Of a stretch of DNA of 64,000 bases, positions 1 through 64,000 are shown piece by piece. The position numbers were made by a program, and so were the translations under genes. Position 1 is the first letter of the stretch, and every line of letters starts with the position of its first letter. Source of the DNA: Psammoneis japonica. Lineage: Eukaryota. A model generated the notes under the pieces. It saw nothing but the letters and a program-made list of their open reading frames with translations. It had not been told where the DNA came from and searched no databases. The stretch covers positions 1-64,000 of the forward strand of contig QPGO01000188.1 in assembly GCA_008632985.1 (NCBI GenBank), in the 5' to 3' direction.

Positions 1-1
1 G

Positions 2-1063
2 GATGAGGAGGAATCAAGCGACAACAACAACAACGATGATGATGACAAAGATGGAGATCACACCCCAGACAAAGACGGAGATGGCACAAACCCTCAAGAT
101 GAAGAAGAAAAGAAAGATCGTTCAGATGAGGGGGGCGATGGAGGCACCGGCCAGTCGCCAGATGACAAAGCAACTTCTGACAGAGACGGAATGTCAGAGG
201 AGAACGACCATCAACAGGGGGGGCAAGGAAATGACAAAGCAGATGAAGAGGAACCGTCTGCTGCAAACCCTGAGCAACAGGTGGAAGAGGACGAACAAAA
301 CATGGATTTTGCTGGGAGTGACGCAGATTCGAACAACGAACCCCTTGCAAGCGGGAGTGACAGCGACAGCAGTTGCCCCATCCTGAATCGAATCAACCAA
401 GAGCCACGTTCTGCTGCAAGGAAAAGACAGCGGAGAAGGGATCTGGTTTCCTCATCCTCTGAATCATCCTCTGAATCGGAGATTGACACAGCAGATGATG
501 ACGACCCTTCAAGTGCTGTGGCTGCTGCCAAAGTTTCAGCCAAGATGAAAACCCCGTCAAAAAAGTCTGAACCACAAAACAAGCATGTGAGCAAAAGAGT
601 TTTTCGGAGAACTCCGGATCGTGAGACAAAAACAGACGCAAAGAAACGCAGGGCGAAGGCGCTGGCCGAAATGGAGGAAAGAAAGGAACAGGCAAGGAGG
701 AAGAGAATTGAGGCAGACAAGAAAAGGGGGGGGAAGGCGGCTGCGAGAGCAACGGCAATGGAGGCAAAGAGAAAGGAAATGGAAAAAATGAAGAACGCCA
801 GCAAGCCAAAGAAGGACACGCCGCCGACAGGAAGAATGACGGCAGAACAACCCCCACCCATCCAAACGAATTCGTCAAAGAAAAAAAAACGTGCAACTGC
901 CCGCGGAACAAAAAACAACAAAAATGAAGTTCAGGCAGTTGGGCACATGCATCGACCACAAAAATGTGTGCGGGGAGCATCGCAGTCTCAAAATTGCTGC
1001 ATTGCTGTGAATCCCGCAACATTCATTGTCCACTTTTTGTTTTTAGGTTTGTGGCGATTTTAG
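2..1063 (+). pseudogene. 5'-truncated low-complexity ORF (Asp/Glu-rich, then Lys/Arg-rich), function unknown
   Basis: Frame is open from the window edge (DEEESSDNNNNDDDDK...) into ORF 191-1063. No Tyr. Composition resembles 5700-6839, and both contain EEPSAA. Confidence 0.4.
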
Positions 1064-1800
1064 CATTCAGTTGCTTGTTTTGGGTGTTGCTTGCAGTCAC
1101 GCTGTCAGTCACAACATGTGAAAACGATGCTTGACTGATTCGATGTGTGTGGTGACTTGTCCTGAGTTCGACTGTGGATGAGAAATGGGTGCGGGTGCGC
1201 ATCGATTTGGCATGGTCTGTCCTTCAACCGTGGCCACTTGGCATCGATCAGGTGGGGTCTGTCATTCAACCGGAAGCGTTTCCCACCACCTCACAACCCA
1301 AACCCAAACCCTCCCATCCCAAATGCACCACACACAATGACATTTGACAATTCCACGTTCCAGATTCCAGTCTGATTTTGAAGTCAAAATGGGTCCAAGG
1401 CTGGTCCCAAAATGACATTTCCACACACCTGTTCCCCCATCAGTTTGCAGTCGAAATGGGTTCAACGTTGGTCCCATGTGGACACATGAGTTTCCATTTG
1501 TTTGTCAAATCTGGATTTCAATGGAGAATTTCGGAGCACACGTTGTCAAATGGGGCCAATGGCAGCTCCATTTCGGCCTTCTAATTGTGACACAGAACAT
1601 TTTCAATTGGTTGTTCGACTGTTTTGCCTGTCAACATGGGTCCAACAGTGGACCCATTTGACCATGTCGGGTTGCTGGACTGACGTTTTTGTTTCAACAT
1701 CTTGTGTTTCTGTTTTAGTCAGTTGGGTTTGACTTGCGACAATCATTGCCTCGAAGTCTTCATTGGGAAAGAACCAAAGTGCGGCAATTTGGTTGGAACT

Positions 1801-4800
1801 ATGATGTTGCGTGAGATGGCCAGTCCAGGCTCCGTTTCTCGCGTTTGTGGTTGCATCATGCTGGGAAAAAACCTTCGTTTGTCAAAGCAAAAAGTTGAAA
1901 ACATCCTCAGACCAATTGGTTGCACCGTTCCAAAGGAAGATTTTGCTTGTCCAGAAGACACATCAGGCGAAATCAATTTGGACGAAGTGAGTGAAAACTG
2001 TTTCAGCAATGAAGAAGTGAGGATGAATTGCACGACGATCTCCAATGGAGTCACTTGCAAAGGTGAAGCAACAGACAAAGACCTCGATGAAACAAAGGAG
2101 GAGAAGAGGAAGACTGGAGCGAGGGGTTGCGAATTGGACGACTGTTTCGACCATTCCAGCAACATTGACGTCACTCCGCTTGTGCTGCAATTGTTTGTGG
2201 CAGCCACCTCTGCATGCAATGGCAGGGACAAGGTGGTGGTGCTGACAACGATGAGCCAACTGCCAGTGAATCACAGGAATGCACGATTTGCAGGCGCTCA
2301 CAACAGCAATTGCAGGCGAGGAAGTTTTCGTGACGAAGAACTGCCAGGCACAATGCAGACAGCACAGGGAGAGTCGACGGAGAGTTTTCACAGAGCATCA
2401 TGCACTGCAATGCCTTGCGCTTTGGTGGACAAATGCACCAAACATTCACGGGTTGTCCCCGTTTTGGACGTGCTGGAAGAAAACAACAAAACGACTCTAA
2501 ATTCCAGCGGGGCAGCTCGGGTTGCTCAGGATCATGCTGCGTCACTGTTTTGGATTCTCACAGGACAGAGGTTGCACCACACCGAGAGGAACCCTGGGCC
2601 TGGCTTCATCAGAGACGTGTTCATTGCGAAATCACAGGGCATGGCAAGGAACTGCGGCATGAGTCTTTGTGCAAGCCTTGTTGACGCTTTGGACAAATCT
2701 TTCAACTCGCTGCGCGAACCCAAAGATTGGCGTGCACTCAACCTTCATTGCAGGAAGATTCTTTCTCAAGACTTCATCATTGGCGAACAGGTTCTGGCGC
2801 CTTTTTGGCATTGTGAATTCACGCCGCTGCCGACGGATGAAACAATGTTGCAAGCCGAAACGGCGCTGTTGTTCCAGGCATGCACGAATGTTCGCATTGC
2901 ACTTTTGGACGGAATGCGCAGATCGTGTGGCGGCATCAGTGCCAGGCTAAGAGCATTGCCTGCAACAATGTGGGAACAATGCAGAGAGAACCCATCTCAG
3001 TTGCACTCAAATGTCGGTGCAAACAATGACAGACTGACCAAAGAGGCAAACGCTCATTTTGTGCAGCCAGTCACAAACACCCAGACGACTCACTCCAGCA
3101 ACGCCAGCTCGTTGTTCACTTCAAAGGAGTTGTGGATTGGCAAAAAATGCAGTGAGAAGGTGCAGGCAGACCTGCAGAGTGGCAGGTGGCATTGTTTTTT
3201 GGATGTGGTGCTTTCGGCATGCGACCATTGCAGCAAAAATCCAGATTTTTGGCGACCTGGAGAACTCCAAATGAGGAAAGTGGCAAATGATGCAAGAGTG
3301 AACACGGCTGAACAGAATTTCAACGATGCCAACAAAAACAAAAAGCAACAAAGAATCATCAAAGAAAAGGTGATGAATCTTTTTTTCAGTGACACGTGCA
3401 AGCCTCTCATCCAGTGCTTGCAACAGGCAATCAAGCAGCAAGGAGGGGCCTCTGACGATGCTGGCAAAGCTCACATTGCAGTCTGGTTGGACGCCCTGGA
3501 GAAGAAGAAGGTGAAAGGAATGCACAACAGAATGGGACCTTTTCCTGTCAGACCGGGGATTTGTGGTTCATTGAATCTGTTCTCAAACTTGTTGCACAAC
3601 AAACAGAGTTCAGGTTTTTTGCAACAAGCAATGAAGAACGCAACAACCTCAGTGTTTCCGGATTGCCACAGAAAAGATTTGTTGCACCATGACACAGCAA
3701 ACAATTTCGAACGTAACTGCGACGGGGAGGCAATGGGCATTGACACCGCGTCATTGAAAAGCATTGAAGACTGGCAAGTGCCCAATGAAAAGAAGATTGG
3801 AAAGGCATTCAAGGTGTGTTTTGGCTGCTCAGCTCCATTTGTCTTCTCGTCCGCTGTGTCAAATGGGACCAACGTTGGTTCCAAATTGACCATGTCTGTC
3901 CTGTGTGCGTTGACGGTCGAAATGGGACCATCATTGGGGCCAAATGGATCGTCTGTCATGTGTGCGTGTAACAGGTCAAAATGGACCCATCAATGGGCCC
4001 AAAATGGATCGCATCTTGCCAGCGCACGTTTGTTCATGTGGGACCAGCATTGGCTCCAAGTCGACCATGTTTTGTTCTGTGCTTGCACGTGCTCAATTTT
4101 TGACAATCATTGGCTGGCCGTTGTTTTCGTTTGTTTCATTTGCAGAGATTCTTCTCGAACATTGGCAATCGATCGATGACGCCGGATGATGTCAACTGTT
4201 TGGGCGAGGATGTCCACTCTGCGCTTTTGGATCCACAAATCATGCTGGGGCGCACTGTGTTGAAAGCAAAAGGAGTCAAAAAAACAAAGAAACGGATCAA
4301 AATTGGTTGACAAGGATCTTTCTTGCAGCCGGCAAGGACATCCTCCAGTTGCGTGCTTCTTTCGGCTCGGTGTTGCCTGTCAACAAGGATTGGTTGCGTC
4401 CAAAGGAAACTGACGGTGAAGCTTTTGCTCCGCCTGGAAAAGACCGTCGTGAGAACACTTGGTTGCATCACTCCATGCTGCTTGAAGACCCTGAAGAAGA
4501 CGCCGATGCACAAGCAGCAATGATGGACAAGGACACTTTGAAATCATGCAGAGAGTTGGTGAGAAAAAGCAAGGCCGACCCAGACATCATGACAAACATT
4601 CCCACAATGGCGGCATTTGTCTGTGAGTGGTTGAGCAAGGAAAAGAGCTTGAGTGTTTCTGTCAGAAGATTCGCCGTGATTGACAAGGACGAGGGGCAAG
4701 TTAAAATTTGTGGACAACAAAGGGAACCTTGTGGCAGAGGAAACAATGAAGACCTTCCATTCAAACACCTTTTGCGTGAGGTGCAAGGTTGGAAGGAGCG

Positions 4801-6839: not shown

Positions 6840-6851
6840 AACATCAATTGT

Positions 6852-8190
6852 GTGGAATGGACCATTGGGGCACATTCGCCCCAGTCGTTGCATGGAGTGC
6901 GGTGTGACTGACATTGTGTCTGGCGGCAATCGCCGGTCTGAAAAGCAGACAAGTGGATCATGCGCAAGCATTTCCACAAGCAGAGCTGGAAGAACCAGCA
7001 TGTGTGAGACTCCCAGAAGGGCGGGAAGTGAAAGACGAAAATGGAAACATCATGCCAGACATGGCATGCAAACTGAAAAAGAACTCATGCGGCACAAAAA
7101 CTGCTGCACGAAACTGGTTCCAGAAACTGTCAAAGGGGCTGGAACGACGCAGTTTCAAAAAATCAAAAATGGACCCATGTCTGTTCATCAGAAATGACTG
7201 CATCATCTGCTTGCACACAGATGGTTGTTTGGTTTTTGCTCCAAAGAACTGCATTGTCGCTGCACTCATGCAAGAACTCAAGCAAGACGAGCTTCAACTT
7301 GCCGACGAAGGTGATGCACCCGCTTTCCTCAGTGTGGATGTGGCCAATGCCGTCGATGGCAAAATCCACATGACCCAGACAGGTCTTGTTGATTCCGCGT
7401 TGAAAGACCTTGGTCTGAGGTCCCACAACAATGAACCATTGCAGAGCAGGCCACAAACAAAGGCTGCTCCAGCAGCGCAAATGCTGCACCCTGACACAGA
7501 CGGTCAGGAGCATCAAGAACTGTGGAGCTGCCGGTCTGTTGTCGGAAAGATGAGCTCTCTGGCACAAATGACTCGACCAGACATTGCAGTGGCAGCGCAC
7601 ATGTGCACCAGATTTTTCAACTGCCCAAAGGCATTGCACGAACGAGCAGTTGAGCGCATCGGACGTCATCTGCTGGCAACTTCAACAGATGGCATTGAGC
7701 TCCGGCTGAAAGGGAAATTCTCCCTGGGCGCATGTGTTGACAGCGACTTCGCGGGAATGTGGTGCAGAAATTTTGCCCATCTCCACGAATCGCACCTGTC
7801 ATGATCAGGGTGTGTTGTCACATTCGCAGGCTGTCCAATCTGTTGGAAGAGCAAATTGCAAACCGAGACAGCTCTCTCCTCAACCGAGGCTGAACTCGTT
7901 GCACTGTCGCAGTGCCTGAGAGAGCCACTTCCAATGAGAACTGTGCCAGAAGAACTGTCCAAAACCATGGGTTTTGAGCTGGCAAATTCACACATTGAAT
8001 CTGGTTCTCTGGAAACTCGTGTGCTTCCACACAAGCTTCCCCCGTCCACAGCGCATGAAGACAAAACAGGGTGCACTGCACTGGCCACCTCTGACGAGCA
8101 ATGCAGAGCCAGAGCCAAGCACACAACCATCAAATGGATGCACTTTTGGGACCACACAAAACGTGGTTCTGTGAAGAAGGCAGTGAAAGT
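6852..8190 (+). pseudogene. pol: Ty1/copia reverse transcriptase-RNase H fragment
   Basis: TFAPVVAW, QVDHAQAFPQAEL, SKMDPCLF, ICLHTDG (YxDD), TRPDIA, CVDSDFAG, QTETALSSTEAE. Confidence 0.92.
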
Positions 8191-8423
8191 TGGCGACACA
8201 TTGAGCAGTCCAAACAGACTGCTGCTTCACTCAAAAACAGCATTTTTGGATGTGTGCAAACAGCATTTTTTGCTTCGCTTGTCCTCGAAGCACGAGGGAG
8301 AGAAACACCCTGGACACACCCCAGACATTTTCTGGGAATGCTCTGGAGGCTGTGCGCAGATGTTGCTGCATCGGCTTGGCTCCATTGCTGGCATTGGTCA
8401 GAGCCCTCGTCGACACGAGGGAG

Positions 8424-8593
8424 TGTCACGTTCAGCTGGAGCTCGCAGGACAGACGGACGGACGGACGGATGGACAGATGGAGCTCATTCGCACGGACTC
8501 AGAGAGATGATGTCGAAGATTCTCTGACGCAGCTGGCTCATGGACCACAGAACAGTCGCGAGCCTCTTTGGCTCACAACATCCACACAAGACA
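8424..8593 (+). mobile_element. Copia LTR (duplicated 3' LTR, 170 bp)
   Basis: TGTC...GACA termini, preceded by polypurine tract GAGGGAG. Matches 20241-20410 and 11434-11603. Confidence 0.9.
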
Positions 8594-11433
8594 CCCTTTG
8601 TGATTTGGTGCCCTCAACAGACATTTTTTGTCCTTTTTGATTTTGTGCCCTTGGCCATTTTGCTGGTCACGACAGAGCTGCAGAACAACAAGAACCTGCC
8701 CGATGAAGAGCGCGGGGCAAAGGAGAGAAAGTGCGTGAGGTGCCAGAAGCACTTCACGGCAGGGAGCTCCAAGAATGGAGATGCGGAAGGGAGCGCACCC
8801 AGGAAACGCAAGAGGGAGGATTTTTGCAGGAAGATTGTGGCAGAGCGTGACAGGAAAGTGGAGGAGGGGGGCAATGGGCTGGGGGATGAGGAAAGCCACG
8901 TGGCGGGTTGCGCTGAGACACACGAGCTGGAGCCAGCACCTGTTTGGCAGACAATGTGTGAAAAGTGGCAGTCATGTTTGTTGCAAATGACGTTGCAGGC
9001 ACAATCCAAATTGAGCGACTGCACTCCACGGCGCCAGCTGGAGAGCAACTGGGGAAGGGCACAACACGGGTGGTGCCTTGGGAAACCAGTCAGCCGATCT
9101 GTTGTCAGTCAGCTGTTGATTGTGTTTGAGTGGGTGCGCCGGAGTTTTTGGCCTGCTCGCTTTCCACGTGGCCTGGAACAACCCAAATCTGTGCAGACTC
9201 AGCACGCTTTGCCCTGCAGAACAGTTTTTGGGAGCGTTCTCTGGCTCGCGGCTCAAAACGACACGTGAAATGTCGCATTTTCGCATTTTCGCATTTTCGC
9301 ATTTTCGCATTTTCGCATTTTCGCATTTTCGCATTTTCACTGGTGGTCTTCAAATCAAGAACAACCTCGCCACGTGTTGCAGGAGGGCACTGAAGGGACA
9401 CAGCCCACTGGCAGGGCGCTGATCAAACAAGATTTGCGGCGCAAGTGTTTGGCGCTGGGGGCGCCTTTGAGGTTTTGTGCCCTCAGCCATGTTGCGCAAT
9501 TCTTGATTTTGTGCCCTTGACTTTTTTGTGCCCTTGGCTGCTTTGCGCCCTTTCCTTTTTTTGTGCCCTCGAGCACTTTGCCCCATCTCGTGGTTTTGTG
9601 CCCTTGGCCATTTTGCGCCCTTTGTGACTTTGTGCCCTTGCCCACTTTGTGCCTTTTTTGGCTTTGGGCCCTCAGCCGCATTTGGCGCCCCTCATGATTT
9701 TGTGCCTTCAGCAATTTTTGGCCATTGTGGCTTTGTGCCCTTTGCCGCCTTGGACCCTTTCTGATTTTTTGCCCTTGGCAGCTTTGTGCCCTCAGCCGCC
9801 ATTTTGCGCCCTCAGCCATTTTGTGGCCTCAGCCGCTTTGTGCCCCTGCCTGGTTTGTGCTCTTTGTGATTTGGCGCCCTCGACAGACATTTTTTGTCCT
9901 TTTTGATTTTGTGCCCTTGGCCATTTTGCTGGTCACAACAGAGTTGCAGAACAGCAAGAACCTGCCCGATGAAGAACACGGGGCAAAGGAGAGAAAGTGC
10001 ACGAGGTGCCTGAAGCACTTCACAGCAGGGAGCTCCAAGAATGGAGATGCGGAAGGGAGCGCACCCAGGAAACGCAAGAGGGAGGATTTTTGCAGGAAGA
10101 TTGTGGCAGAGCGTGACAGGAAAGTGGAGGAGGGGGGCAGTGGGTTGGGGGATGAGGAAAGCCATGTGGGGGGTTGGACCCAGACACATGAGCTGGAGCC
10201 AACACCTGTTTGGCAGACAATGTGTGAAAAGTGGCAGTCACCTTTGTTGCAAATGACGTTGCAGGCACAACCCAAATTGAGTGACTGTGCTCCACGGTGC
10301 CAGCCGGAGAGCAGCCGGGGAAGGGCGCGACACAAGCGGCACTTTGGGAAGCCAGCCAACCGATCTGTTGTCAGTCAGTTGTCGAATGTGTTTGAGTGGG
10401 TGCGCCGGAGTTTTTGGCCCGCTCACTTTCTGCGTGGCCTGGTGCAACCCAAATCTGTGTGGACTCAGCACGCTTTGCCCTGCAGAACAGTTTTTGGGAG
10501 TGTTCTCTGGCTCGCGGCTCAAAATGATGCGCAAAATGGCGCGGACAATGGGTGCGGTGGCGCGCCTGTTTGTCCGTTTTCTGTCCTTCAACAGTGGATG
10601 TAAATCAGACACGGCAGTGCATCCATTTGTCCGTTTTCTGTCCTTCAACAACAGACGCAGTTTAGATGCCGTGGTGTGTCCATTTCGCCTTTTCTGGCCT
10701 TCAACAGGAGACACAAAGCAGATCGGAAGGTGTGCCGACATCTCAAAATCTGTTGAGCAGATCCGGAGTTGTGTCGACATCTCTGAATCTGTCAAGAGTG
10801 TGCGAGGTCGGCTGGGCACTTTTGCTCTTCCTGGTTTGTTGCCATTGGCCACTTTGTGCCCTTTGTGCCTTTTTGCCTTTTGCGCTGCCCTTGGCCAATT
10901 TGTGCCCTTTGCAACTTTGTGCCCTCAGCTGCCATTTTGCACTCTCACTCCGTTCAGTGATTTTTTTGTGCCCCAGGAAAGTTTGTGCCCTTTGTGATTT
11001 TGTGCCCTCAACTCCCATTTTTTGTCATTTTTTGTTTTGCGCCCTTGGCCATTTTGCACCTTTGAGATTTTGTGCCATCAGTCATGTTGCGCAACTCTTG
11101 ATTTTGTGCCCTTGACCTTTTTGTGCCCTTGGCTGTTTTGTGCCCTTTCCTTTTTTTGTGCCCTTGAGCATCGTGTGCTTTTCATGGTTTTGTGCCCTTG
11201 GCCATTTTGCGCCCTTTGTGACTTTGTGCCCTTGTCCATTTTGCACCTTTTTTGGTTTTGGGCCCTCAGCCGCATGTGGCGCCCCTCGCGACATTGTGGT
11301 TTTGTGCCCTTTGCCATTTTGGACCCTTTGTGATTTTTTGCCCTTGGCAGCTTTGTGCCCTCAGCCACCATTTTGCACCCTCAGTCATTTTGTGACCTCA
11401 GCAATTTTGTGCCCCTGCCTGGTTTGTGCCCTT
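8594..11433. repeat. Modular macro-repeat: (CGCATTTT)n, TTTTGTGCCCTT-rich array and a GA-rich module
   Basis: The same modules recur in the same orientation at about 20411-25060, 37705-38050, 38685-41792 and 45490-47570. (CGCATTTT)n lies at 9274-9338. Confidence 0.85.
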
Positions 11434-12060: not shown

Positions 12061-12067
12061 CACCACC

Positions 12068-44990: not shown

Positions 44991-45489
44991 CCACAAACAG
45001 CACTGTCAAATCTGTTGAAGAGCAAAATCAACAATCACAATGTTCAGTGTGAGAGCAACAAATGTGTGAAGAACCGATTCTTCAAAAATGAATGTCGGAC
45101 CGTTGCGAGCGCTGGTCATTGGCATGCAAAAAAACGCCCACAATCAACAATCAACAACAGCAATGACACTTGTGCTTGACAAATTCCCTCAACAAAAACA
45201 ATTCCTGCACTGTTGCTGTTTGATTCCTGGCGTGATCCACACTCGCCGCTCAACGGAGTTGTCTCTCCCACACTCGTGCACTCACCTTGGGTCATTTGAT
45301 TTCTCGTCTTGTGTCGACTGCATCTCCACTCGCCTCAAAATCAAACTCCCCTTGGTTCGTGTCGCACTCGGTGCTCGTTCTGATTCCTCACAGAATCACG
45401 CAAAATCACGCACTCGCGCTTGCACGCAAGTGACGTGATTTCTGTGTGATTCCGGTGATTTCGCGTGACTGCCGTGTGATTGCTCAACA

Positions 45490-47789: not shown

Positions 47790-47951
47790 CTTCAGTGTGG
47801 ACGACGCACAGATGCAAGGGTGCGCCACAAAATGACTCAAAATGTCAAAAAAACACGTGGAAATCTGCGCGCGCGACATGCGACGTGATTCAAAAAACTG
47901 TCGATGTCACAGCTCAGCAGTGCGAGGTCCCACCTGGACCTGGAACGCGTC
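47790..47951 (+). mobile_element. Right end of a truncated subfamily B MITE
   Basis: ...GAGGTCCCACCTGGACCTGGAACGCGTC matches the end of 22537-22926. The left boundary is approximate. Confidence 0.8.
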
Positions 47952-53756: not shown

Positions 53757-53868
53757 CTTCCATTTTTCGTCGGACCTCTGGATGTCGGCCTTTCTCCTTT
53801 CAACCGAACCTCAAGTTAATGCAGTGCTCTAAGCCTCAGTCTTCTCTTCGGAGGAGCACGGCCCAACC

Positions 53869-56800
53869 ATGAGCAGCACGATTTCGACTGATGATCCCTC
53901 TCTCGCATGGCAGCAAATTCTCGACGGACGCAGCTGTCATCCTCCTGCTGATCGCCGGATCGATTTTTCTCGCCTCAAGACCAATGAACCTGTGGGCAAT
54001 GCACTTCGACCCAAGCTTCCGCATCACACACGTCTGTGCGCCTTTAACGCCAATGGTTGCAAGTTCGACAAGCGCGGCGGGGACATAAATGAGTGCTGTC
54101 AAATTGCTTCGGAAATCCAAGCCGACGTCATCGGCATCTCCGAAGTGTGTCTGGACACTGCCCAATTTGATGTTCTCTCTGTTTGCCATTCTGCTGTCTC
54201 CAAATCTCTGCACCGCGGGCGATCCACTTTCTCGACCAGCTCTGCCACCTTCACTGCTCAACACAAACCAGGTGGTGTGGCTTTGTTGTCTTGCAATTCG
54301 ATGTCAGCACGTTTTCGGACTCAAGAATCAGACCCACTTGGTCGGTGGTCTGTTCAAGTTTTCGACGGCAGGAACGGACGCCAGGTGATGTTTGTCTCTT
54401 GCTGTCGAGTTTGCGCTAAAAACCAACAACACCCGGGGAAAACAACAGCTTGTGCTCAGCAAATGTCTCTTCTCCGACAACAAGGCCGTCAGATCCTCGA
54501 CCCCAGGAAAGCCTTTTGTGCCAACTTATCCCGTGTTTTGCAGGACTTCACGGCAGAACCGCATGGGGAGGTGATCATCTTTGGCAATTTTAACACTGAT
54601 TTCAACTTCGACACAGACTCTTTGGCTGCTGTTGCACAACGTTTTGATTTGTCCGACGTTCTGTTTGACATTGTGGGCGACAACGACTTCGCTGCATGCA
54701 CGAGGGGTTCTAAGCGCCTCGACCACGTGCTTGCCTCACCTGGTGCTCTCGCTGCGGCACGGTTCGGTGGATGCGAAGCTTTTGGTTATAGAGTTGAGTC
54801 TGATCATCGTGCTTGCTTTGTGGATTTTGACACGGTGGCCCTTTTTGGTGATCCCACCGTCGATCTACCTGAGGCATCTTTCTGGGATCTTCAGGCAACA
54901 TCCAAACCTCAGATCACCACTTGTCTTCAAGCCATCGGCCCTGTGATTCAGAGCCGCTCAGCATTGGAGAGGTCACATCAGTTGATTGACCTCGAAACTC
55001 CGAATCATGCGTTGGCAGAACGCCCAGACCGTGATCTTACCCAGTTCTCCCTCGCTGCCGCCAAGAAATGCCGCTCTCACCGCAAACCAGACTGGTCGGT
55101 AGAACTGGCAGATTTGAGACATGGGGTGCATGTCTTTTCACGCCTCGCATCAATGATGCGGACAAAATTAGACTGTGTCTCACAGATTCGGTCGATTCAG
55201 GATAAACTCAGTGGATCCTTTTCTATTCCGGAGACTTTGCAAGAGTGTCAACAAGAGTTGCGTGCTGCTCAGGAAGACTGCAAGCGCTTGGCTGCCGACA
55301 GCGTGGTCCACCGTGAACGGGAGACATCAGAAAAGACAGCAGCACTCGATTTAGAAAACACCAAGGCTTCCCGCAAGCAGGCCACTGTGTTGCGCAACAT
55401 CCGCAAGGCAGAAGAAATGAAGAAATTGTTTGAGAAGATAGATTCTTGTCGCACCCAGAAGGACACTGGCATGCAGAGTGTACAAGTTCCTCGCAATCCC
55501 TCTGTTCCTCCGAAAGAATGTCAAGACTGGGTTGCTGTCGATGCTCCGGAAGAAGTGGCAACTGCTCTCTGTCAACGGAATCAGAAACACTTTGGTCAAG
55601 CACACGGCACACCCCCAACAGTCCCTCCACTGTCGGTGGACCTCGGTTGTGAAGGTGATGCGATCATGGCGGATCTCATTCTCAATGGCGAGCATGACAC
55701 GTCTGCTTTGAATGAAGCAACAGCTCTTTTCATCAAACACTTGCGACAACGGTCACCAGCGTCAGTGCCAAACCTCCTTTCTGCCTCAGACCTCGAAGGG
55801 AAAATAAAACGTTGGACAGAAACTGCCACTGCGTCCACACATTCTGGACTCCATCTTGGTCATTGGAAGGCAATGTGTGCTCCTCATTGATTTTCTGAGG
55901 CTGCGGATTCAGAAGGCAATCCCACTGTTGATCATGAGGCCCTCGATGAAGTTCAACACACCCTCATTCAAATCAGGTTGAATTTGCTAAATTGCGCTCT
56001 CCGCTGGGGGTGTTCGTTTCACCGTTGGCAAGATGTCGTAAATGTCATGATTTTCAAAGAGCCGGGCAACAACAAGATTCATTGTCTTCGAGTCATCCAC
56101 ACACACGAAGCCGACTTTCAATTGATCTTGAGTGTCAAGTGGCGTGCTCCAGCTCAAAACATGGAGCAACGTCGACCACACAATTCTGGGATCTACGGCA
56201 CTCGCGCTTTCTTAAATGCCAACACTCCCGTGCACCTTGAAGAACTCATGCTGGAGATCAGCAGAGCTGCACGCAAGTCTGCTGTTCACAGTGATGACGA
56301 TTGTACTTCGTGCTGCGACAGAAATGTCCCTGCTTTGGTGGCAATTGAAAGCCGCAGCAATGGCATGCCCAAAGAAGTTGCCCAGGTTGCCAGTTCGACT
56401 CTTCACAAGGCTCGACACTGGTTGCGTGCGGTGCTTGGCCTGTCTCAAGGTTCTCACTCCCATTCCGATGACTTTCCGATTTACGGTGCTGGACAGGGCA
56501 GTGGAAACTCCCCGTTCTACTGGAGCCAAATCTGCAACAGTTTGTTTCAGATTTTCGATCAACGTGCACACGGTGCCTGTTTCGAGACCCCTGACCGCTC
56601 TCTTTCTCTGCAGATGTTCAATCGTGGATGCGTGGATGATGCACCCAAACAGGTGAATGCCTTTTGTGCATCTCCTCAACCTTGCATTCTGGAACTGGCT
56701 CTAAAGATGCAGGAGGACAATCAGCTGTGGTGTGACCTTTTGAGTGCAGCTGGACACAAGTTAGAACTGCCCAAGTGCTCCTTCCACGCAATCAAGTGGA

Positions 56801-59800
56801 TGTTCACAGATGACGGGGAACCATGCCTGCGACCACACAATGAGGAGATCGACATTGAAATCTCTTCTGCTGACCGAGCTGCGACACGGTCTAGCAAACA
56901 ATCATCTGCTCATTCTGCTCACAAGACACTTGGTCATCACAAAGCTCCCGCAGGTGCGCAAAAGACTCAATGCACGGCCCTCAAACAGAAGAGCGATGGC
57001 ATTGCCTTGTTTCTTCGTTCTTGCCCCCTTGACAGACACGAGGCTTGGACCCATCATTTTGCCTGCTGCCTGTCCTCGACTGCCTGCGTTCTCCCAAACA
57101 CCCATTTCAAGGAGAAAGAGTTGTCAGAGGTACAAAGAAAAGCCATGCGTGCGATTTTTGCCAAATGCGGACACAATCGAAATTCGAAACGAGATGTTCC
57201 ATTTGGACCATGTTCCCCAAGAGGTGGCGGTTTCAGGTCCTTAGACGTCGAACAAGGAGTTGCTCAAGTTCTACAGTTTCTTCGTCACTGGCGCGGGACA
57301 GGACAACCTCAAGCTCTGTCTTGTGTTGCAGTGTCATGGATTCAGTTGCAGATCGGAACGGGAGTCAGTTTTCTAAAAGACGTTCATGCCAAGTTGCCTC
57401 ATTCGGAATCACGCTGGTTTGTGTCTCTCCGATCTTTCTTGGCAAGGATTGATGCTTCTGTTGACTGTGACGAGCCTGGCGTCCTCCCGCTGCAGCGAGA
57501 CAATGACCAATTTATTGTGGATGTCGCACTTGAATCGGGCGCCTTCAGTGATCGGGAGATCAGGTGGGTCAACTGCTGTCGGTTGTATCTTGGCTTGCTG
57601 ACACTGTCGGATGTTGCCCTTCTGGCGTCCTCCCGCTGCAGCGAGACAACGACCAATTTATTGTGGATGTCGCACTTGAATCGGGCGCCTTCAGTGATCG
57701 GGAGATCAGGTGGGTCAACTGCTGTCGGTTGTATCTTGGCGTGCTGACACTGTCGGATGTTGCCCTTCCAGATGGCCTCTTGCTTGACTCCTTTAAAGTC
57801 GACGGCCGATCGTCCCTTTTTAGCAGCCACAGCACTCTGAACCCCGTTGAACAACAACGCCCGTCTGCTCGAGCTTGGAAACAGTGGCAAAGAGCTTGTT
57901 CCTTATTTTGCAAGGACGACTCTTTTGATCTCCGAGATCCCCCAGGTCAATGGCTCATGCCGGCTGCGGAAATGCGAGTGTCACACGTGGCATGCCACGA
58001 ACCCTCCGAAGATCACTTGTGCATCCGTTCGGATGCTGGATTTCAAATGTTTCCGGTGAAACACGGTTATGCTGACTCGATTACGGCCTTGGAAACTGTC
58101 CCAGATCTTTCCCCTGCGGCATCCCCGGTGCTTGTGGATGCCACCAGAAACGGTCATTGGCGAATTTGGTCTTCTGGTGCTCCAGTCTTCTTGCCTGCTT
58201 TGCCTCCCATCCCTGACAATTTTCTCTCTATGCTGCGGTCTCTGTCCCGTTGGGAATCGTCCCTGTTTGAGGAAATCACACTGCACCGGTCAATGTTCGA
58301 AATTGCCGACATCTTTGCGACCCACCAAGCGTCAGCGGGTAGCGACGGCTCGGTCCTTCAATTTCGAGGTGCCTTTGGTTGGACGATCACAATCGATGGG
58401 ACACCTCTTGTGGATTGCGCAGGTCCGGTTTTCGGTTTTCGCCCATCTTCTTGCCGAGCTGAAGCATGCGGCATGCTGTCCTTTCTCCGTTTCCTGATCC
58501 GATTGACAGAATGTTGTTCTTCATCTTTAAGAGGCGCTGACTTGCATTGCGACAATTCTTCACTCATTCGCAACATCTCGAATTTCCAGGTGATTCCTTC
58601 TCCTCCCGAAGCAGAGGATGCTCAAGGAGCCGATGACTTTCCATGGCGGCATCACATTGCTGACACCCTCTCACCAGACTGGGACATTGTCAATGAAATT
58701 TTTCACTCCCTGCGACAAGCATCCGAGGTCAGCACTGACAAACTGCAGTGTCCTGTTGTAGAGATTCATTGGGTGAAAGGTCACCAAGATGACACTCTTC
58801 CTGTGGAGTCTTTGTCCTTGGCGGCGAAGTTGAACATGCGGGCTGACAGATTGGCAGGACAATTCCAAGGCCAATTTTCTGGCAACACTCTTGAAGCCCC
58901 CCGCACACCTCACTGTCGAGCAAATCTGATCCTCCAAGGAGCCACTGTCTCGTCCAAATACAAGCCGGTCCTGCGACATCACGCATCGAGTCCCGCGCCA
59001 GTCGACTGCATGAAAGAGAAATGTGGTTGGTCCGATGAAGTCTGCGCATCGATCGATTGGGACGTTCACGCGAAACTGATGTCACGGAATGTTCGTCGAA
59101 AAGTCAGTGCTGTCAAGCTGGTTCAAGATCTTCCACCCACTGACAAAATCGTGCACAGATGCAATCCAACACGTCCGGACTGTTGCACACACTGTCAGGA
59201 CCCCATGGAAGACAGAGACCACATTCTCCGTTGTCCTCACAACGAGGCCTGGCGCAGAAAATTTTTACAAGGCCTGCGCAAGAAGTGCGACGACATTCAC
59301 ACGTCTCCCTCCTTACGAGACTTGATCATTTCGGCTGTTGAAGCATGGTTTCGAGATGAGCTTCTTTACTCTGAGCAATTTCATCACAGCGTCGTCCCCG
59401 TTTTCCATTCCCAAGTAGAAATGGGTTGGCGTCAGTTGTTCAATGGTCGTTTTTTGGTCCAATGGAATGCGACACAAACCTCCTGTCTTACGTCGAGCGG
59501 CATTTATCGCACCCTTTCGGACCAACAGAAACGTTTGGATTGGGCGGCAACCATTGGGAACTTTGTGTGGGAGCAGTGGTGGGACCTGTGGGATGCTCAC
59601 AATGACGCTGCACACGGACACGATTCGGAAACTAGAAAGTCCTCTCAAAGGAGAGACGCAGAAGCAGAGGTTAAAGCGATTTGTTCTCGCACGGATGATT
59701 GCCTTGCGAGAGACAAGGCGCTCTCATTGGATTCGGTGGAAGATCATTTGACGCATTCAACTCATCGGATTCGCAACTGGCTGGCAATGTTCAAACCAGT

Positions 59801-59900
59801 CTTTAAATCGAGCATGCGGGAAGCCAAACGGTTGGCTGCACGAGGCACCAGAACCATTGCAAGTTACTTTGGCACGGCATCACCCTCGGGTGATGCCGAT
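53869..59900 (+). pseudogene. LINE ORF2: AP endonuclease, RT, RNase H and zinc knuckle
   Basis: APE: FNANG, IGISEV, GNFN, LDHVL, SDHR. RT: DCTSCCDR, GQGSGNSP, GCVDD. RNase H: SDGS, SSCRAEACG, HCDN, WVKGHQD, NMRADRLA. Knuckle: CTHC..DHILRC. Stop at 55888-55890 and a frameshifting duplication. Confidence 0.92.
57476..57767 (+). repeat. 146-bp tandem duplication in LINE ORF2
   Basis: 57476-57621 and 57622-57767 are nearly identical. Confidence 0.92.
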
Positions 59901-60187
59901 CTTGGCCAATTGCCATTTGCTCCTGCCGCACTGACTGTGTGCTGGGAGTGTGGGTTAGCTTGTTGCCGGAGTTGCAGGGTGGAAGTGCAGCAGCACTTAA
60001 AATGTGGAAGTTTGGTTTTGTTTTGTTTTGGTCTCAGTCATGTGGAGCTCCCGCAGCCCTTCGAGGGTCTCATGCTGAGAGTCGCGTTTCCTGATGCATG
60101 CTTCTGCGGGATCAGCGTCACTGTGGACAGCCTGCAGATGCAGGAAAGCAGCATCATCGGCGGCTGCGGCAGGGATGCCTGCTGCAG

Positions 60188-62780
60188 TTTGAGGTCAAAT
60201 GAGAGTTTGCTTGAACCGTTCGAGGTCAAACGAGATTTGGACAGGCTTGTTTCAAGTCAAAAAAGGTTTTTTGCTCTGGGCCAAGCAAGGTGTGGGTTGA
60301 ACCGTTTGAGGTCAAATGAGGTTTTGCTTGAGCCATTTGAGGTCAAACTCATTTTGAGCTCTTGGCAAATCAAGGTGTGGTTTGATCCATTTGAGGTCAA
60401 ACAAGATTTTGCTTGAACCGTTTGAGATCAAATGAGGTTTGGCCAGGCTTGTTTCAAGTCAAACTTGTTTTGAGCACTTGGCAAAACAAGGTGTGAGTTG
60501 AACCATTTGAGGTCAAAGGAGATTTTGCATGGACCGTTTGAGGTCAAAAAAAAATTGATCAGGCTTGTTTCAAGTCAAAAAAATGTTTGTGCTCTGAGCC
60601 AAGCAAGGTGCAAGTCAAACCGTTTGAGCTCAAATGAGATTTTTCTTGAGCCGTTTGAGGTCAAACTCATTTTAAGCTCTTGGCAAAACAAGGTGTGGTT
60701 TGATCCGTTTTGGGTCAAACAAGATTTTGTTTGAGCTGTTTGAGGTCAAACGAGATTTGGCCAGGCTTGTTTCAAGTCAAACAATTTTTTTTGCTCTGGG
60801 CCAAGCATGGTGTGGGTCTGGTCTTGTTTCAAGTCAAACTTGTTTTGAGCGCTTGGCAAAACAAGGTGTGGGTCAAACTGTTTGAGGTCAAATGAGATTT
60901 TGCTTGAACCGTTTGAGGTCAAACAAGATTTGGACAGGCTTTGTTTCAAGTCAAACTTGTTTTGAGCAGCTGGCAAAACAAGGTGTGGGTTGAACCGTTT
61001 GAGGTCAAATGAGATTTTGCATGAGCCGTTTGAGGTCAAATGAGATTTGGCCAGGCTTGTTTCAAGTCAAAAAAAGTTTTTTGATCTGGGCCAAGCAAAG
61101 TGGGGTCAAACCCTTTCAGGTCAAATTAGATTTTGCTTGAGCCTTTTGAGGTCAAACTCATTTTGAGCTCTTGGCAACACAAGGTTTGGGTTGAACCATT
61201 TGAGGTCAAATGAGATTTTGCTTGAACCGTTTGAGGTCAAACGAGATTTGGCCAGGCTTGATTCAAGTCAAAAAAATTGATTGCTCTGGGCCAAGCAAGG
61301 TGTGGGTCAAACTGTTTGAGGTCAAATGAGATTTTGCTTGAGCCGTTTGATGACAAACTCAATTTGAGCTCTTGGCAAAACAAGGTGTGGCTTGATCCAT
61401 GTCAGGTCAAACGAGATTTTGCTTGAACCGTTTGAGGTCAAATGAGATTTGGCAAGGCTTGTTTTGTGTCAAACTTGTTTTGAGCACTTGGCAAAACAAG
61501 GTGTGTGTTGAGCCATTTGAGGTCAAATGAGATTTTGCTTGAACAGTTTGAGATCAAAAGAGATTTGACCAGGCTTTTTTCAAGTCAAAAAACATTTTTT
61601 GCTCTGGGCCAAGCAAGGTGTGGGTCAAACTGTTTGAGATCAAATGAGATTTTGCTTGAGCCATTTTGGGTCAAACTCATTTTGAGCTCTTTGCAAATCA
61701 AGGTGTGGTTTGATCTGTTTGAGACAAAACAAGATTTTGCTTGAAACATTTCAGGTCAAACAAGATTTGGTCGGGCACGGTGAAACATGGTGTGGGTTGA
61801 ACTGTTTGAGGTCAAATGAGATTTTGCTTGAGCCATTTGAGGTCAAACGAGATTTGGCCAGGCTTGTTTCAAGTCAAAAAAAAGCACTTTGCTCTGGGCC
61901 AAGCAAGGTGTGGGTCAAACCATTTGAGGTCAAATGAGATTTTGCTTGAGCCAAACAAGATTTGGCCAGGATTGTTTCAAGTCAAAAATGGTTTTTTGCT
62001 GTGGGCCAAGCAAGGTGTGGGTTGAACCGTTTGAGGTCAAATGAGATTTTGCTTGAAACGTTTGAGGTCCAACAAGATTTGGCCAGGCTTGTTTCAAGTC
62101 AAAAAATTTTTTTGCTCTGGGCCAAGCAAGGTGTGGGTCAAACCATTTGAGGTCAAATGAGAGCTGGCTGGGCATGTTGGGTGTCAAACTTGTTTTGAGC
62201 ACTTGGAAAAACAAGGTTTGGGTTGAACCGTTTGAGGTCAAATGAGATTTTGCTTGAACCGTTTGAGGTCAAACGAGATTTGGAAAGGCTTGTTTCAAGT
62301 CAAACTTGTTTTGAGCACCTGGCAAAACAAGGTGTGGGTTGAGCCGTTTGAGGTCAAATGAGATTTTGCTTGAACCGTTTGAGGTCAAACAAGACATGGC
62401 CGGGCTTGTTTCAAGTCAAAAAAGGTTTTTTGCTCTGGGCCAAGCAAGGTGTGGGTCAAACTGTTTGAGGTCAAATGAGAGCTGGCTGGGCTTGTTTGAG
62501 GTCAAAAGCATTTTCAGCACTTGGCAAAACAAGGTTTGGGTTGAGCGGTTTGAGGTCAAATGAGATTTTGCTTGAACCGTTTGAGGTCAAACTCATTTTG
62601 AGCTCTTGGCAAAACAAGGTGTGGATTGATCCGTTTGAGGTCAAACAAGATTTTGCTTGAAATGTTTCAGGTCAAACAAGATTTGGTCAGGCTTGTTTTA
62701 AGTCAAACACACTGTGAGCACTTGGCAAAACATGGTGTGGGTTGAACCATTTGAGGTCAAATGAGATTTTGCTTGAGCCA
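60188..62780. repeat. TTTGAGGTCAAA satellite, second array
   Basis: Same subunits and orientation as 47952-49245. Confidence 0.93.
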
Positions 62781-62830
62781 GCCATCAAATTGAGGATTCT
62801 GCAACATCAGTTGCTCATGGTGACCAACGG

Positions 62831-63466
62831 ATGTGGTTTGCGGTGTCTCTGATGCAAGGTCTGTTGCAGAAGGAGCATCCTCCGGTTGACAGTCCGATGA
62901 AGTTCTACAACGGCAGGAAGATTGACTGCGCCAGAGATGCCAGTGCCACGACGGAAGATTTGTTGTGCAACAAGCTGACCTTGTGTGGATTGTCAAACAA
63001 GCACTGCGTGACTGTGTGCAATGGTTGGATTTTTGACTCCAATCATCCACATGCCATGTCTGTGACAAATCTTGATTGCTGGAGTTGGTGTTTGGGCAAC
63101 CGGCCGGAAGAAGCAGCCTGTGTGACCAATGATTTGTCAAAGAAAATTGTGCTGATGCACCAGCTTGATTTGCCCAAGTTCATCTGCAGAAGATTGAACA
63201 AGCGCAAGGTGATGGAGATCCAAATGTCATTTGCAATGCATGTTGGGTGTGATGCGTGTTTGTCTGCATTGCGCAGGCAGCAATTGAATTGCTGTTTCGC
63301 TGGGTCACCCGTCTTAGAACCAAATCTTGGCACAAGTCTCTGTGCTCTGAGTCAACGAGTCCCCAACAAATTGATCCATCCGGTGTTTTCCTGCAGAAGC
63401 CCACCAAAATGGCTTCAATCTGATTCATTTGCAACAAACGTCTGTTGGGTGACTCTTCGCTGGTGA
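62831..63466 (+). pseudogene. Unknown protein remnant
   Basis: Protein-like segment KHCVTVCNGWIFDSNHPHAM. No family recognised with certainty. Confidence 0.3.
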
Positions 63467-64000
63467 TGGTGGCAGCAAAATGACCCTTGCAACCAAATGT
63501 TTCCTTGTGCTCCAGCTGGACATGAAGCAGACGGTTGGGTTCCACAGCAGCTCCGGTCTTGCCCTCTTCTAAATGCACAAGAACTGTTGGTTCTTTGTGA
63601 CACCTCGATTGCGTCCTCTGCCGTGGGCATGTCGTGAGGCACCGAAGTGTCCTCTGCCGTTGCATCACCAGCAGAAGCAGGGTCAGTCTCCGCCAGAGGA
63701 GGAGAGACAGGGGAGTCGTCGGCCAACACAGGTGATGTAGCGGCCTTGAGTGACGACAGAGTGTCCCGCCAAGAGGATGCCGTTTTTGAATGGGCGCTGT
63801 TGGCAGGGGCCATGGTGAGTGACAATGAAAATAAAATTCACTGTCGATCCACCACGCAGGGGCAGCATGTGTCGGATCTCTGTGGCATGTGCCAAGGGAG
63901 ATCGCGATGCACGCAGAAGGTGTGCTGATGCCCATGCAAGCAGCCGCAAAAACAAACAGCAATGGCGTGAATCAGCACCCGAGATGCAGACGTCGTTGTC

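Follow-up and report, generated by a model that had tools for sequence, protein, structure and literature searches.

TpA steps nearly erased across a 64-kb repeat-rich stretch of Psammoneis japonica DNA, probably by hypermutation to TpG and CpA in place

How can 64,000 bases of chromosomal DNA come to hold next to no TA? The window analysed here, the whole 64-kb stretch from position 1 to 64000, is rich in repeats: it holds a copia element, a LINE, a gene with a DUF7869 domain and several satellites and microsatellites. TA occurs only 212 times, an observed/expected ratio (o/e) of 0.052 in the dinucleotide count of the whole window. CA (6328; o/e 1.592) and TG (6189; o/e 1.538) are in excess, CG (2509; o/e 0.638) is moderately depleted, and AA, TT and TC have o/e values of 1.34, 1.41 and 1.01. 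Base composition is balanced (A 16249, C 15657, G 16082, T 16012). The initial annotation had described TA as almost absent, with none in the first ~1040 nt; indeed, the first TA lies at position 1044. Each of the 64 one-kb bins contains 0–12 TA steps, with rho_TA between 0 and 0.20. For comparison, rho_TA was 0.39–0.85 (median 0.66) in 80 metagenome loci encoding relatives of the LINE. About 95% of the TA steps across the 64-kb stretch have been turned into TG or CA.

The reading frames bear the same mark. Tyrosine makes up 0.20% of the 11,226 residues in stop-to-stop ORFs of at least 250 aa, with cysteine at 4.33% and histidine at 4.32%. The tyrosine-free frame seen earlier near position 1702 corresponds to ORF 1684-4179, with no Tyr at all but 46 Cys and 27 His, and four of the altered motifs noted earlier were recovered (HTDD at 19031, KHKAR at 18626, SCCDR at 56308 and SCRAEACG at 58449). 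Nearly all stops are TGA, again as first described: trinucleotide counts in any frame over the whole window gave 1363 TGA, 87 TAA and 57 TAG. Since TAA and TAG stops have been lost, spurious long frames bounded by TGA have appeared. A Pfam search of 114 ORFs found no recombinase domain, and no protein more than 50% identical to either of the two frames queried was found in public collections.

Such a pattern might reflect no regional process at all, but a genome-wide avoidance of TA, or an artefact of base calling or assembly where a TA motif is modified. Our data come from a single 64-kb window, and modified motifs can give systematic miscalls in some long-read assemblies. We nevertheless regard this explanation as very improbable. 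Run X1, a separately filed read set (Logan contigs), contains 60% of the 31-mers sampled from positions 1-10000 of the window. Its contigs, possibly from the same sample as the window assembly, align over 1-20000, some with zero differences, and 1094 of the 4775 placed contigs are at least 99% alike to the window. The initial annotation had proposed looking for TA in the reads; the X1 contigs reproduce the TA-poor sequence, with TA restored in just 3 of the 40 differences listed. Furthermore, a base modified on one strand would be expected to make the two strands disagree in the reads, instead of giving clean TG or CA. Avoidance throughout the genome is at odds with a depletion that changes stepwise from block to block, and a proteome with 0.2% tyrosine is not credible. 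We argue from the need of a proteome for tyrosine and from the outgroup data below that the depletion is regional and not genome-wide.

The direction of change was inferred from outgroup proteins of two unrelated elements, the LINE and the DUF7869 gene. Tyrosine is normal in their homologues (2.6–4.7% across 121 proteins, with 83 others at 1.9% or more). At 32 hits to conserved tyrosine columns, the LINE now has 15 Cys, 7 His, 5 Tyr, 3 Phe, 1 Trp and 1 Val; these hits represent 30 separate columns, a tandem duplication of 146 bp having been counted twice. For conserved L, G, R, D, P, S, W, F, N, K, E, H, V and C, retention in the same element is 79–93%. The DUF7869 gene, a 779-aa frame of a repeat-borne element on the reverse strand (26702..29041; Pfam PF25273, E 3e-16), has 2 Tyr, 43 Cys and 37 His, compared to a mean of 3.9% Tyr among the 150 homologues listed. 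All six of its conserved tyrosine columns at a 70% threshold, and all nine at a 50% threshold, are substituted (3 His and 3 Cys; 5 Cys, 3 His and 1 Gly). Because conserved tyrosines have been lost and the proteins would be non-functional, these elements cannot have spread in their TA-free state.

The change depends closely on the neighbouring base. In conserved I/M/T/N/K columns, A>G at the first codon position was found at 17 of 31 sites preceded by T, but at only 1/55 following C, 1/17 following A and 0/35 following G (17/31 vs 2/107; Fisher p 1.5e-11). T>C at codon position 1 behaves likewise in the conserved LINE columns, being practically confined to sites before A (Tyr to His, 7/32), with Phe to Leu at 1/24, Trp to Arg at 0/30, Cys to Arg at 0/10 and Ser to Pro at 0/30. 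The outgroup polarity in both elements supports the A:T to G:C direction first suggested, and the change at the TpA step is strictly dependent on a 5' T. Error-prone synthesis of the pol-eta type at WA motifs (WA to WG) had been listed among the candidate mechanisms, and TA to TG does belong to the pol-eta spectrum. Such synthesis, acting during repair of silent chromatin, fits poorly, however, because ApA is not hit: A>G after A was 1/17 against 17/31 after T, conserved Lys and Asn of the LINE are 89% and 85% kept, and AA is at o/e 1.34. This candidate therefore appears very unlikely.

Both strands are affected, as the initial annotation had claimed. CA and TG are nearly equal in number (6328 vs 6189), and with 17 changes of Tyr to Cys and 10 of Tyr to His a 1:1 ratio is not rejected (p 0.25). 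ADAR-like A-to-I editing of retroelement transcripts, followed by reverse transcription and insertion, could account for the T preference, since ADARs prefer a 5' U (Mettrop et al., 2026, bioRxiv 10.64898/2026.01.13.699255), and the affected elements include two retroelements. Yet editing of transcripts would alter the sense strand alone, while antisense Tyr to His changes are frequent (7/32 in the LINE, 3/6 in the DUF7869 gene). Depletion is equally strong in the DUF7869 element, in which Pfam found no retroelement domain, in satellites, in a telomere-type tract and in all spacer DNA, and the contrast between the LINE block and its flanks, described below, follows age and not element class. 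RNA editing is thus already contradicted by depletion on both strands and in non-retroelement DNA, and has hardly any probability left. Since both strands, non-retroelement DNA and satellites are affected, the change would have happened in place on genomic DNA.

The interstitial telomere-type tract (37650..37705), identified by direct reading of the sequence, is a case in which the ancestral sequence is known. Its units are three CCCTGA, three CCCCAA, ACCTGA, CCCCAA and CCCTGG. Read as (CCCTAA)n, the tract has its TA converted in 9 of 9 units, 5 to TG and 4 to CA, which bears out the earlier remark that telomere-like DNA was hit.

The extent of depletion varies between blocks. A LINE-bearing block on the forward strand (49900..60200; Pfam Exo_endo_phos) sits within a satellite array of 31/116/201-bp units, interrupting it into a left (47940..49246) and a right part (60187..62780), both nearly TA-free. 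The block comprises, all on the forward strand, an ORF1-like frame (52512-53756), an AP-endonuclease (53833-55890), an RT (55891-57747) and a C-terminal part (57552-60416); 203 homologues were found, with a top identity of 46–49%. TA depletion is milder here than in the flanks, at 8.7 TA/kb compared with about 2/kb for the interrupted satellites (2.1/kb in 60201-64000, and 1.8–2.1/kb for the window outside the LINE block). The edges are sharp, the nearest outside TA steps being at 49265 and 60673. Even so, rho_TA of the block is 0.15, as opposed to the median of 0.66 at the 80 loci of its relatives. This nesting supports the interpretation that the LINE block is a younger insertion, whose lesser TA loss reflects its age. 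TA loss is ~78% in this youngest insertion versus ~95% in old sequence. A further block, 40000..44999, shows intermediate depletion (6.4 TA/kb); its frames lack an assigned family, and no Pfam family was found above threshold in it.

The copia-type LTR retroelement remnant (15903..21118, forward strand; Pfam gag_pre-integrs 15903-16421, RVT_2 17636-19621), whose YxDD box now reads HTDD, has a 5'-truncated segmental duplicate of its positions 18669-21089 at 6852..9272 on the same strand, 97.3% identical and likewise TA-free. The two copies share 241 CA, 221 TG and 81 CG sites, and differ at 3 sites with TA in one copy, 7 TG/CA swaps and 29 sites with CG in one copy; one codon reads TGC versus TAC, another TGC versus CAC. 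The initial annotation had named TA-free consensus sequences of transposable elements as evidence against hypermutation, and these 97%-identical blocks superficially look like such a case. The pair is, judging from these shared sites, a segmental duplication of DNA mutated beforehand and not a transposed copy. Most of the TA loss is older than the duplication, and the pair therefore gives little independent evidence. The codon that is still TAC in one copy and TGC in the other nevertheless fits change in place continuing over time.

The surviving TA steps are not a random sample. Their NTAN make-up differs from that of coding LINE relatives of other organisms (chi2 240, df 9); relative to this same coding baseline, TTAA is enriched 4.0-fold, and none of the 212 is ATAT against ~20 expected. 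The trend was repeated when the LINE block and the remaining window were each analysed alone. As shown by these survivors, conversion has a preference of TAT>TAC>TAG>TAA.

TpA loss is accompanied by decay of CpG. Exchange of CG with TG or CA is the commonest class of difference between young duplicates (164 of 383 scored events), and also the commonest among differences of X1 contigs from the window. TG and CA were also swapped between copies, in 54 cases against ~22 expected from CpG when pooled, although above the CpG expectation in only 3 of the first 5 duplicate pairs. These swaps resemble independent TA to TG and TA to CA events; a CpG origin is equally possible.

We propose, with a probability of about 85% for the process as distinct from its enzyme, that TpA was hypermutated in place on genomic DNA. 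The window would be a graveyard of transposons and satellites. Its chromatin is probably silent and cytosine-methylated, because CG is at o/e 0.64 and CG exchanges with TG or CA are the commonest differences in young duplicates and X1. At 5'-TA-3' steps of double-stranded DNA, the A:T pair of either strand would become G:C, giving TG or CA, and conversion would continue over time, so that the oldest sequence is the most depleted. The process may be aimed at silent or methylated chromatin and not at repeats as such. Its outcome is permanent inactivation, with catalytic tyrosines replaced by Cys or His, and a role in genome defence may be suggested.

Which agent would do this? TA is self-complementary, and sequence alone therefore cannot separate adenine deamination from thymine modification. 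An adenine deaminase of the TadA/ADAT2 superfamily that reads a 5' T (A to inosine, read as G) is our leading candidate, at somewhat less than an even chance. The natural substrate of TadA/ADAT2-3 is A34 after U33, i.e., 5'-T/U-A. Modification of thymine at TpA is a more doubtful agent, and something else than either is less probable again. A Pfam search of the 114 ORFs found no deaminase or dioxygenase gene in the 64-kb window.

The specific thymine route considered, in which a TET/JBP-type hydroxylase makes 5hmU, perhaps further oxidised, at TpA of silenced repeats and mispairing with G at replication yields T to C, is likewise unlikely, if far less so than RNA editing or pol-eta. The palindromic TA step would make the opposite strand read A to G, all sequence results fit equally well, and on the thymine strand the context preference may equally be described as purine-T-A. 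Yet 5hmU is weakly mutagenic, TpC shows no visible effect (TC o/e 1.01; Ser to Pro 0/30), and a TET/JBP-type enzyme or 5hmU in this organism is hypothetical. In dinoflagellates, 5hmU made by TET/JBP homologues silences transposable elements, and earlier work cited there found thymine replaced preferentially in TA and TC (PMC11572971). This resembles our case as a modification of repeat DNA with a TA/TC preference, but that source describes an epigenetic mark, not a source of T to C, and TpC is unaffected here.

Fungal RIP likewise produces permanent, context-specific transitions in repeat DNA, in place and on both strands, wrecking transposon genes. In contrast, the product of RIP at CpA/TpG is TpA, with a gain of AT; in the window TpA becomes CpA/TpG and GC rises. 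RIP requires duplicated sequence and a DNMT-like protein; the duplication requirement is a fungal feature that the process in the window is not known to share. The footprints of APOBEC and ADAR also stem from deaminase-type editing of mobile or viral nucleic acid in a short context. However, APOBEC causes C to T (G to A), and ADAR acts on RNA, marking retro-copies on the transcribed strand alone, unlike the changes on both strands and in non-retroelement DNA found here. Amphioxus BjADAT2, the single ADAT2 assayed on DNA, is reported to deaminate A and C of DNA both in E. coli and in vitro, in the contexts 5'-GAA-3' for adenine and 5'-TCG-3', with preference for hairpin and single-stranded DNA (PMC10354150). 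The motif in the window differs, being T-A-(T>C>G>A) and lying in chromosomal duplex DNA, and the GAA mismatch counts against a deaminase of the ADAT2 type.

The closest match is Bigelowiella natans, the subject of the single 2026 preprint in which a TpA-erasing footprint has so far been reported (Mettrop et al., 2026, bioRxiv 10.64898/2026.01.13.699255). The initial annotation knew of no pathway of this kind; B. natans shows the same signature, and therefore the process in the window is not unprecedented. According to the preprint, TpA to TpG/CpA mutations arise de novo, 230 of 231 mutations in hypermutable regions are TpA changes of the A>G or T>C type, and the rate there is ~1000 times that elsewhere; an ADAT2-type deaminase is also suggested. 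As in the window, TpA is almost the sole target and TpG/CpA the sole outcome on both strands, with scarce TpA and abundant CpA+TpG in the long term. Its 324 low-TpA CDS, enriched in RT, endonuclease-RT and DDE genes, have a TpA frequency of 0.0018, similar to the 1.8–2.1 TA/kb outside our LINE block. By analogy, the process would be the same as in B. natans. The settings differ: the best-studied targets there are two inserts, one of NCLDV origin (186 kb; rho_TA still 0.45) and one of virophage origin, with TpA-depleted clusters of at least three 1-kb windows and a highlighted scaffold of 4.4 kb, whereas here an entire 64-kb block of transposon, satellite and telomere-type DNA is saturated (rho 0.05). 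A term search of the preprint's main text found no analysis beyond the dinucleotide and none of parallel CpG decay. New here are the saturation in repeats and the TAT>TAC>TAG>TAA preference.

TA is nearly erased from the window. The dinucleotide count gave 212 TA steps against ~4,065 expected, an observed/expected ratio (o/e) of 0.052, with an even base composition and with CA at 1.59, TG at 1.54, CG at 0.64, AA at 1.34 and TT at 1.41. Unlike TA, both AA and TC lie near or above 1. The depletion extends over all 64 one-kb bins, which contain 0–12 TA each (TA o/e at most 0.20), and the earliest TA is found at position 1044. Counted in any frame, TAA occurs 87 times and TAG 57 times, compared with 1363 times for TGA. 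The open reading frame at 1684–4179 encodes no Tyr at all, and the stop-to-stop frames of at least 250 aa together contain 0.20% Tyr, with Cys and His at 4.3% each. Hence, the near-absence of TA claimed in the initial annotation is borne out. Its examples of motifs with Cys or His where Tyr is expected (HTDD and KHKAR in the copia-type element, SCCDR and SCRAEACG in the LINE) are all present at the kind of place it described; a Pfam profile search of the window's frames did not recover its recombinase and MITE examples.

The window is a mosaic of repeats. It contains a copia-type element at 15903–21118 (+), with Pfam matches to gag_pre-integrs (15903–16421) and RVT_2, together with a partial, truncated duplicate of this element; a LINE block at 49900–60200 (+) with AP-endonuclease and reverse transcriptase (RT) domains in Pfam; a DUF7869-domain gene at 26702–29041 (-) that carries no retroelement domain; satellites with units of 23 bp, 17/34 bp and 31/116/201 bp; and an 8-bp microsatellite with five occurrences. 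No RNA gene was found by Rfam and tRNA scans, no host gene was recognisable with Pfam and NCBIfam, and Pfam detected no deaminase gene with the HxE-PCxxC motif. A Pfam search of 93 further frames yielded nothing beyond gag_pre-integrs (15903–16421) and one sub-threshold match to the helicase-associated domain HA at 29704–30255 (+), whose score of 23.4 bits lies below the cut-off of 28.4. Similarly, neither NCBIfam (11 frames) nor PDB (the frame at 1684–4176) gave a match. In the collections searched, no protein exceeds 50% identity to either queried frame, which makes an annotated genome such as the B. natans reference a less likely source. The sole named relative among the homologues comes from Cylindrotheca fusiformis and, with 37% identity, is too remote to indicate where the window belongs. 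There are 158 stop-to-stop frames of at least 130 aa and 28 of at least 250 aa. With TAA and TAG almost absent and TGA alone ending the frames, long false reading frames arise; many overlap on opposite strands, and most lack any family. The long TGA-bounded frames of the window should therefore not be taken as genes.

Some repeats have a distinctive arrangement. Arrays of the 23-bp satellite (TTTCAAGGAAAACAAACRYGTCR) lie at 23438–23790, 25090–25689, 26077–26599, 31145–31235 and 33220–33912, on both sides of the DUF7869 gene, and may be sub-terminal repeats of the element to which this gene belongs. The 8-bp microsatellite at 37707–37919 (TTTCTGCA/TTTCCGCA/TTTTTGCA) directly adjoins an interstitial telomere-type tract at 37650–37705. 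Related 8-bp arrays (TCGCATTT) at 9273, 22137, 23792 and 45674 each sit at the edge of one and the same repeat unit. Within the LINE reading frame, a 146-bp tandem duplication with 98% identity (57476–57768) puts the RT part and the C-terminal part out of frame with each other.

The direction of change is apparent from comparison with relatives. Tyr makes up 2.6–4.7% of 121 proteins related to the LINE and at least 1.9% of 83 more (203 among the matches listed), the closest of the listed matches being 46–49% identical. TA o/e in the DNA of 80 metagenome loci encoding such relatives ranges from 0.39 to 0.85, with a median of 0.66. In contrast, the window's LINE has only 0.15–0.65% Tyr and a TA o/e of 0.15. 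We stacked 60 homologues by pairwise BLASTP and took as Tyr columns those with Tyr in at least 70% of at least 30 homologues. The window's LINE shows Cys 15, His 7, Tyr 5, Phe 3, Trp 1 and Val 1 at these columns, that is, Cys or His at 22 of the 32 hits, two of which were counted twice owing to the 146-bp duplication. Other conserved residues were retained at 79–93%. Exceptions were Ile (46% kept, with 8 changed to Val), Thr (64%, with 5 changed to Ala), Ala (64%) and Met (1 of 4), which is what loss of TpA over codon boundaries predicts. Indeed, the first base of conserved Ile, Met, Thr, Asn and Lys codons changed from A to G in 17 of 31 columns where T precedes it, compared with 1/55 after C, 1/17 after A and 0/35 after G (17/31 versus 2/107 for the other preceding bases; Fisher P = 1.5e-11). 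Changes from T to C at the first codon position of the LINE occurred only before A.

The same conversion is found in unrelated DNA of the window. The DUF7869 gene has 2 Tyr in 779 residues, compared with a mean of 3.9% in the 150 homologues listed, and all six of its conserved-Tyr columns were converted, three to His and three to Cys. Relative to a (CCCTAA)n ancestor, the telomere-type tract, which now reads CCCTGA (three times), CCCCAA (three times), ACCTGA, CCCCAA and CCCTGG, lost TA in 9 of 9 units, with TG in five and CA in four. In the columns and the tract compared, the mutations were confined to TpA and yielded TpG and CpA, on both strands. Among distant DUF7869 relatives from the public representative library, the 617-aa protein P0273 (32% identity to the window's gene) contains 0.5% Tyr, 4.9% Cys and 4.7% His, with all seven of its conserved-Tyr columns converted (three His, four Cys). 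This indicates that the signature occurs in at least one further public sequence. The pattern is seen in part in P0282 (420 aa), with two Cys and three His at eight conserved-Tyr columns; five other relatives tested retained Tyr.

Editing of retroelement RNA by an ADAR-type enzyme, fixed by retrotransposition, was considered and rejected. Tyr changed to Cys 17 times and to His 10 times, no significant departure from 1:1; antisense-strand events are common (10 of the 27 Cys/His outcomes), and over the whole window TG and CA are equally frequent. Moreover, the satellites, the spacers and the DUF7869 gene show the same depletion as the retroelements. The occurrence of both products and the inclusion of non-retroelement DNA rule out RNA editing and locate the change in the genomic DNA itself. 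Counted over the 9 units of the telomere-type tract, strand-coordinated runs did not exceed chance.

The density of TA varies stepwise along the window, from ~1.8 per kb at 1–40 kb to 6.4 at 40–45 kb, 2.0 at 45–49.9 kb, 8.7 in the LINE-bearing block at 49.9–60.2 kb and 2.1 beyond. The LINE block splits a single satellite array into parts at 47.9–49.2 kb and 60.2–62.8 kb. It is thus younger than the satellite that it interrupts yet less mutated, as expected if loss accumulates in place. The copia blocks at 15903–21118 and 6852–9272 (the latter a 5'-truncated duplicate of 18669–21089) are 97.3% identical and have the TA-free state in common, with 462 shared CA/TG places, 3 single TAs and 7 TG/CA swaps. 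Because their homology begins within the RT domain, the second block arose by segmental duplication of DNA that was already inactivated, and the pair is no evidence that the family was TA-free while active. At one copia codon, one of the copies retains TAC whereas the other reads TGC, and 11 TA/TG differences separate duplicates within the window. We conclude that adenine–thymine pairs at TpA, on either strand of chromosomal DNA, are specifically changed to guanine–cytosine pairs and that these changes accumulate over time. The tests thus support the A:T to G:C process at TpA on both strands of genomic DNA proposed in the initial annotation.

The TA-poor state is also present in sequencing reads. 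A separately filed public read set, X1, assembled as Logan contigs, contains 60% of the words sampled from positions 1–10000, and 1094 of its 4775 contigs placed on positions 1–20000 are at least 99% alike. The match shows that this state is not confined to the assembly, even though X1 may stem from the same sample as the assembly. The X1 contigs include exact matches to the window as well as sequences that diverge from it by 1–2%, nearly always by transitions (385 versus 62 transversions). The classes of difference cover the 40 listed of 454: 12 make up six TG/CA swaps, 17 interchange CG with TG or CA, 4 interchange TA and TG (3 restoring and 1 removing TA), and the remainder are other changes. 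The divergent contigs resemble another haplotype, strain or paralogue, with changes concentrated at CpG and former TpA places.

CpG decays alongside TpA. The CG o/e is 0.64 in the window and 0.80 in the LINE, compared with a median of 0.95 in the relatives' loci, and interchange of CG with TG or CA is the dominant difference between young duplicates (164 of 383 scored events), as well as frequent among the X1 differences. This combination of CpG deficit and CpG to TpG/CpA polymorphism is that of 5-methylcytosine deamination, and judged from base sequence the deficit is probably the usual footprint of cytosine methylation. We rejected TG/CA swaps as proof of two independent hits on TA, because CpG decay produces them too; 8 pairs together showed 54, where ~22 were expected from CpG. 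If the relatives' make-up is taken as ancestral, the LINE lost ~77% of its TA versus ~16% of its CpG, and the window outside the LINE ~95% versus ~35%. By rough arithmetic, TpA therefore decays ~6–9 times faster per site than CpG. In the CpG that survives, the share of GCG half-sites is raised (0.298 versus 0.208 in the relatives) and that of TCG half-sites mildly lowered (0.253 versus 0.323). The TCG share was compared with a view to a possible dual-specificity deaminase that, like BjADAT2, would hit TCG as well, and its deficit is only mild.

The surviving TA steps point to a wider motif. With the NTAN composition of the loci of the 80 relatives as baseline, the 212 survivors are enriched in TTAA (4.0-fold) and CTAA/TTAG (3.3-fold) and depleted in GTAC (0.40), ATAG/CTAT (0.32) and ATAC/GTAT (0.15), while ATAT is absent where ~20 of 212 were expected (chi-square 240, 9 degrees of freedom). 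Analysed separately, the LINE block and the remaining sequence show this trend alike. TA newly formed from TG/CA does not account for the skew, since TGN contexts have no bias towards A. A half-site fit ranks mutability as TAT>TAC>TAG>TAA, a ranking that is provisional because the baseline is coding DNA of other organisms.

A precedent now exists, although the initial annotation knew of no named pathway. According to a recent preprint, TpA to TpG/CpA hypermutation occurs in Bigelowiella natans (Mettrop et al., bioRxiv 10.64898/2026.01.13.699255). It reports that 231 of 302 nuclear mutations in mutation-accumulation lines fell in NCLDV and virophage inserts, and that 230 of these 231 were A>G or T>C, all at TpA, at a rate of ~6e-7 per site per generation (Mettrop et al.). 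De novo rates of about 1e-7 to 1e-6 in culture characterise hypermutation of this type. It also lists 324 low-TpA coding sequences with a TpA frequency of 0.0018 and 124 depleted clusters, the coding sequences being enriched in RT, endonuclease-RT and DDE domains (Mettrop et al.). A full-text literature search found no description of such a process besides this preprint.

The simplest chemistry would be deamination of adenine by an enzyme of the TadA/ADAT2 superfamily, and we give a deaminase slightly less than an even chance of being the agent. The natural context of TadA/ADAT2 enzymes has U or T immediately 5' of the target A. An ADAT2-type adenine deaminase is also what the B. natans authors propose (Mettrop et al.). 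However, the one ADAT2 with demonstrated activity on DNA, the amphioxus enzyme BjADAT2, has a preference for GAA and TCG and for hairpin or single-stranded DNA (PMC10354150), which differs from the TpA motif of the window. Alternatively, thymine might be modified at TpA, and this fits the sequence data equally well since TA is palindromic. PMC11572971 describes dinoflagellate TET/JBP enzymes that make 5hmU, which silences transposons; the replacement of thymine is reported to favour the dinucleotides TA and TC. TpC is unaffected in the window, however. We regard a thymine modifier as somewhat unlikely. An agent other than these two seems unlikely. Error-prone synthesis of the pol-eta type (WA to WG), a mechanism put forward in the initial annotation, fits poorly, because ApA is spared, with A>G after A in only 1/17 columns and an AA o/e of 1.34. 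Mutation through a UV photoproduct of TA was set aside; it would lack block specificity, and the B. natans mutations arose in laboratory culture.

Possibly, in an organism that is not B. natans, we see a general and conserved means by which some eukaryotes permanently disarm silenced DNA, using a new enzyme specificity aimed by chromatin state; we put the probability of this reading at roughly 0.35. If it is true, the targets would be transposons, satellites and stray telomere repeats rather than viral inserts alone, and the process would be saturating, with a T-A-pyrimidine preference unlike that of any described DNA deaminase and with an enzyme that either deaminates adenine or modifies thymine as its agent. 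A natural enzyme that alters TA on duplex chromosomal DNA would be of interest to builders of base editors. Furthermore, Cys- and His-rich, Tyr-free proteins from TA-erased regions can mislead annotation and homology searches.

In view of the B. natans preprint, the window adds one more case to a newly described process and is not without precedent. It is far more saturated than the B. natans case and shows that the targets reach beyond viral inserts. The window shows the end state, with ~95% of TA gone over 64 kb of transposons and satellites, and adds two handles on the mechanism, namely the wider motif and the co-occurring CpG decay. Fungal RIP, in contrast, changes C:G to T:A at CpA/TpG, which creates TpA and lowers GC; the counts, the Tyr columns and the telomere-type tract all run in the opposite direction, and RIP was rejected as the process at work here. 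If the B. natans preprint stands, this would be a second RIP-like killing of invading DNA in eukaryotes, of opposite chemical direction.
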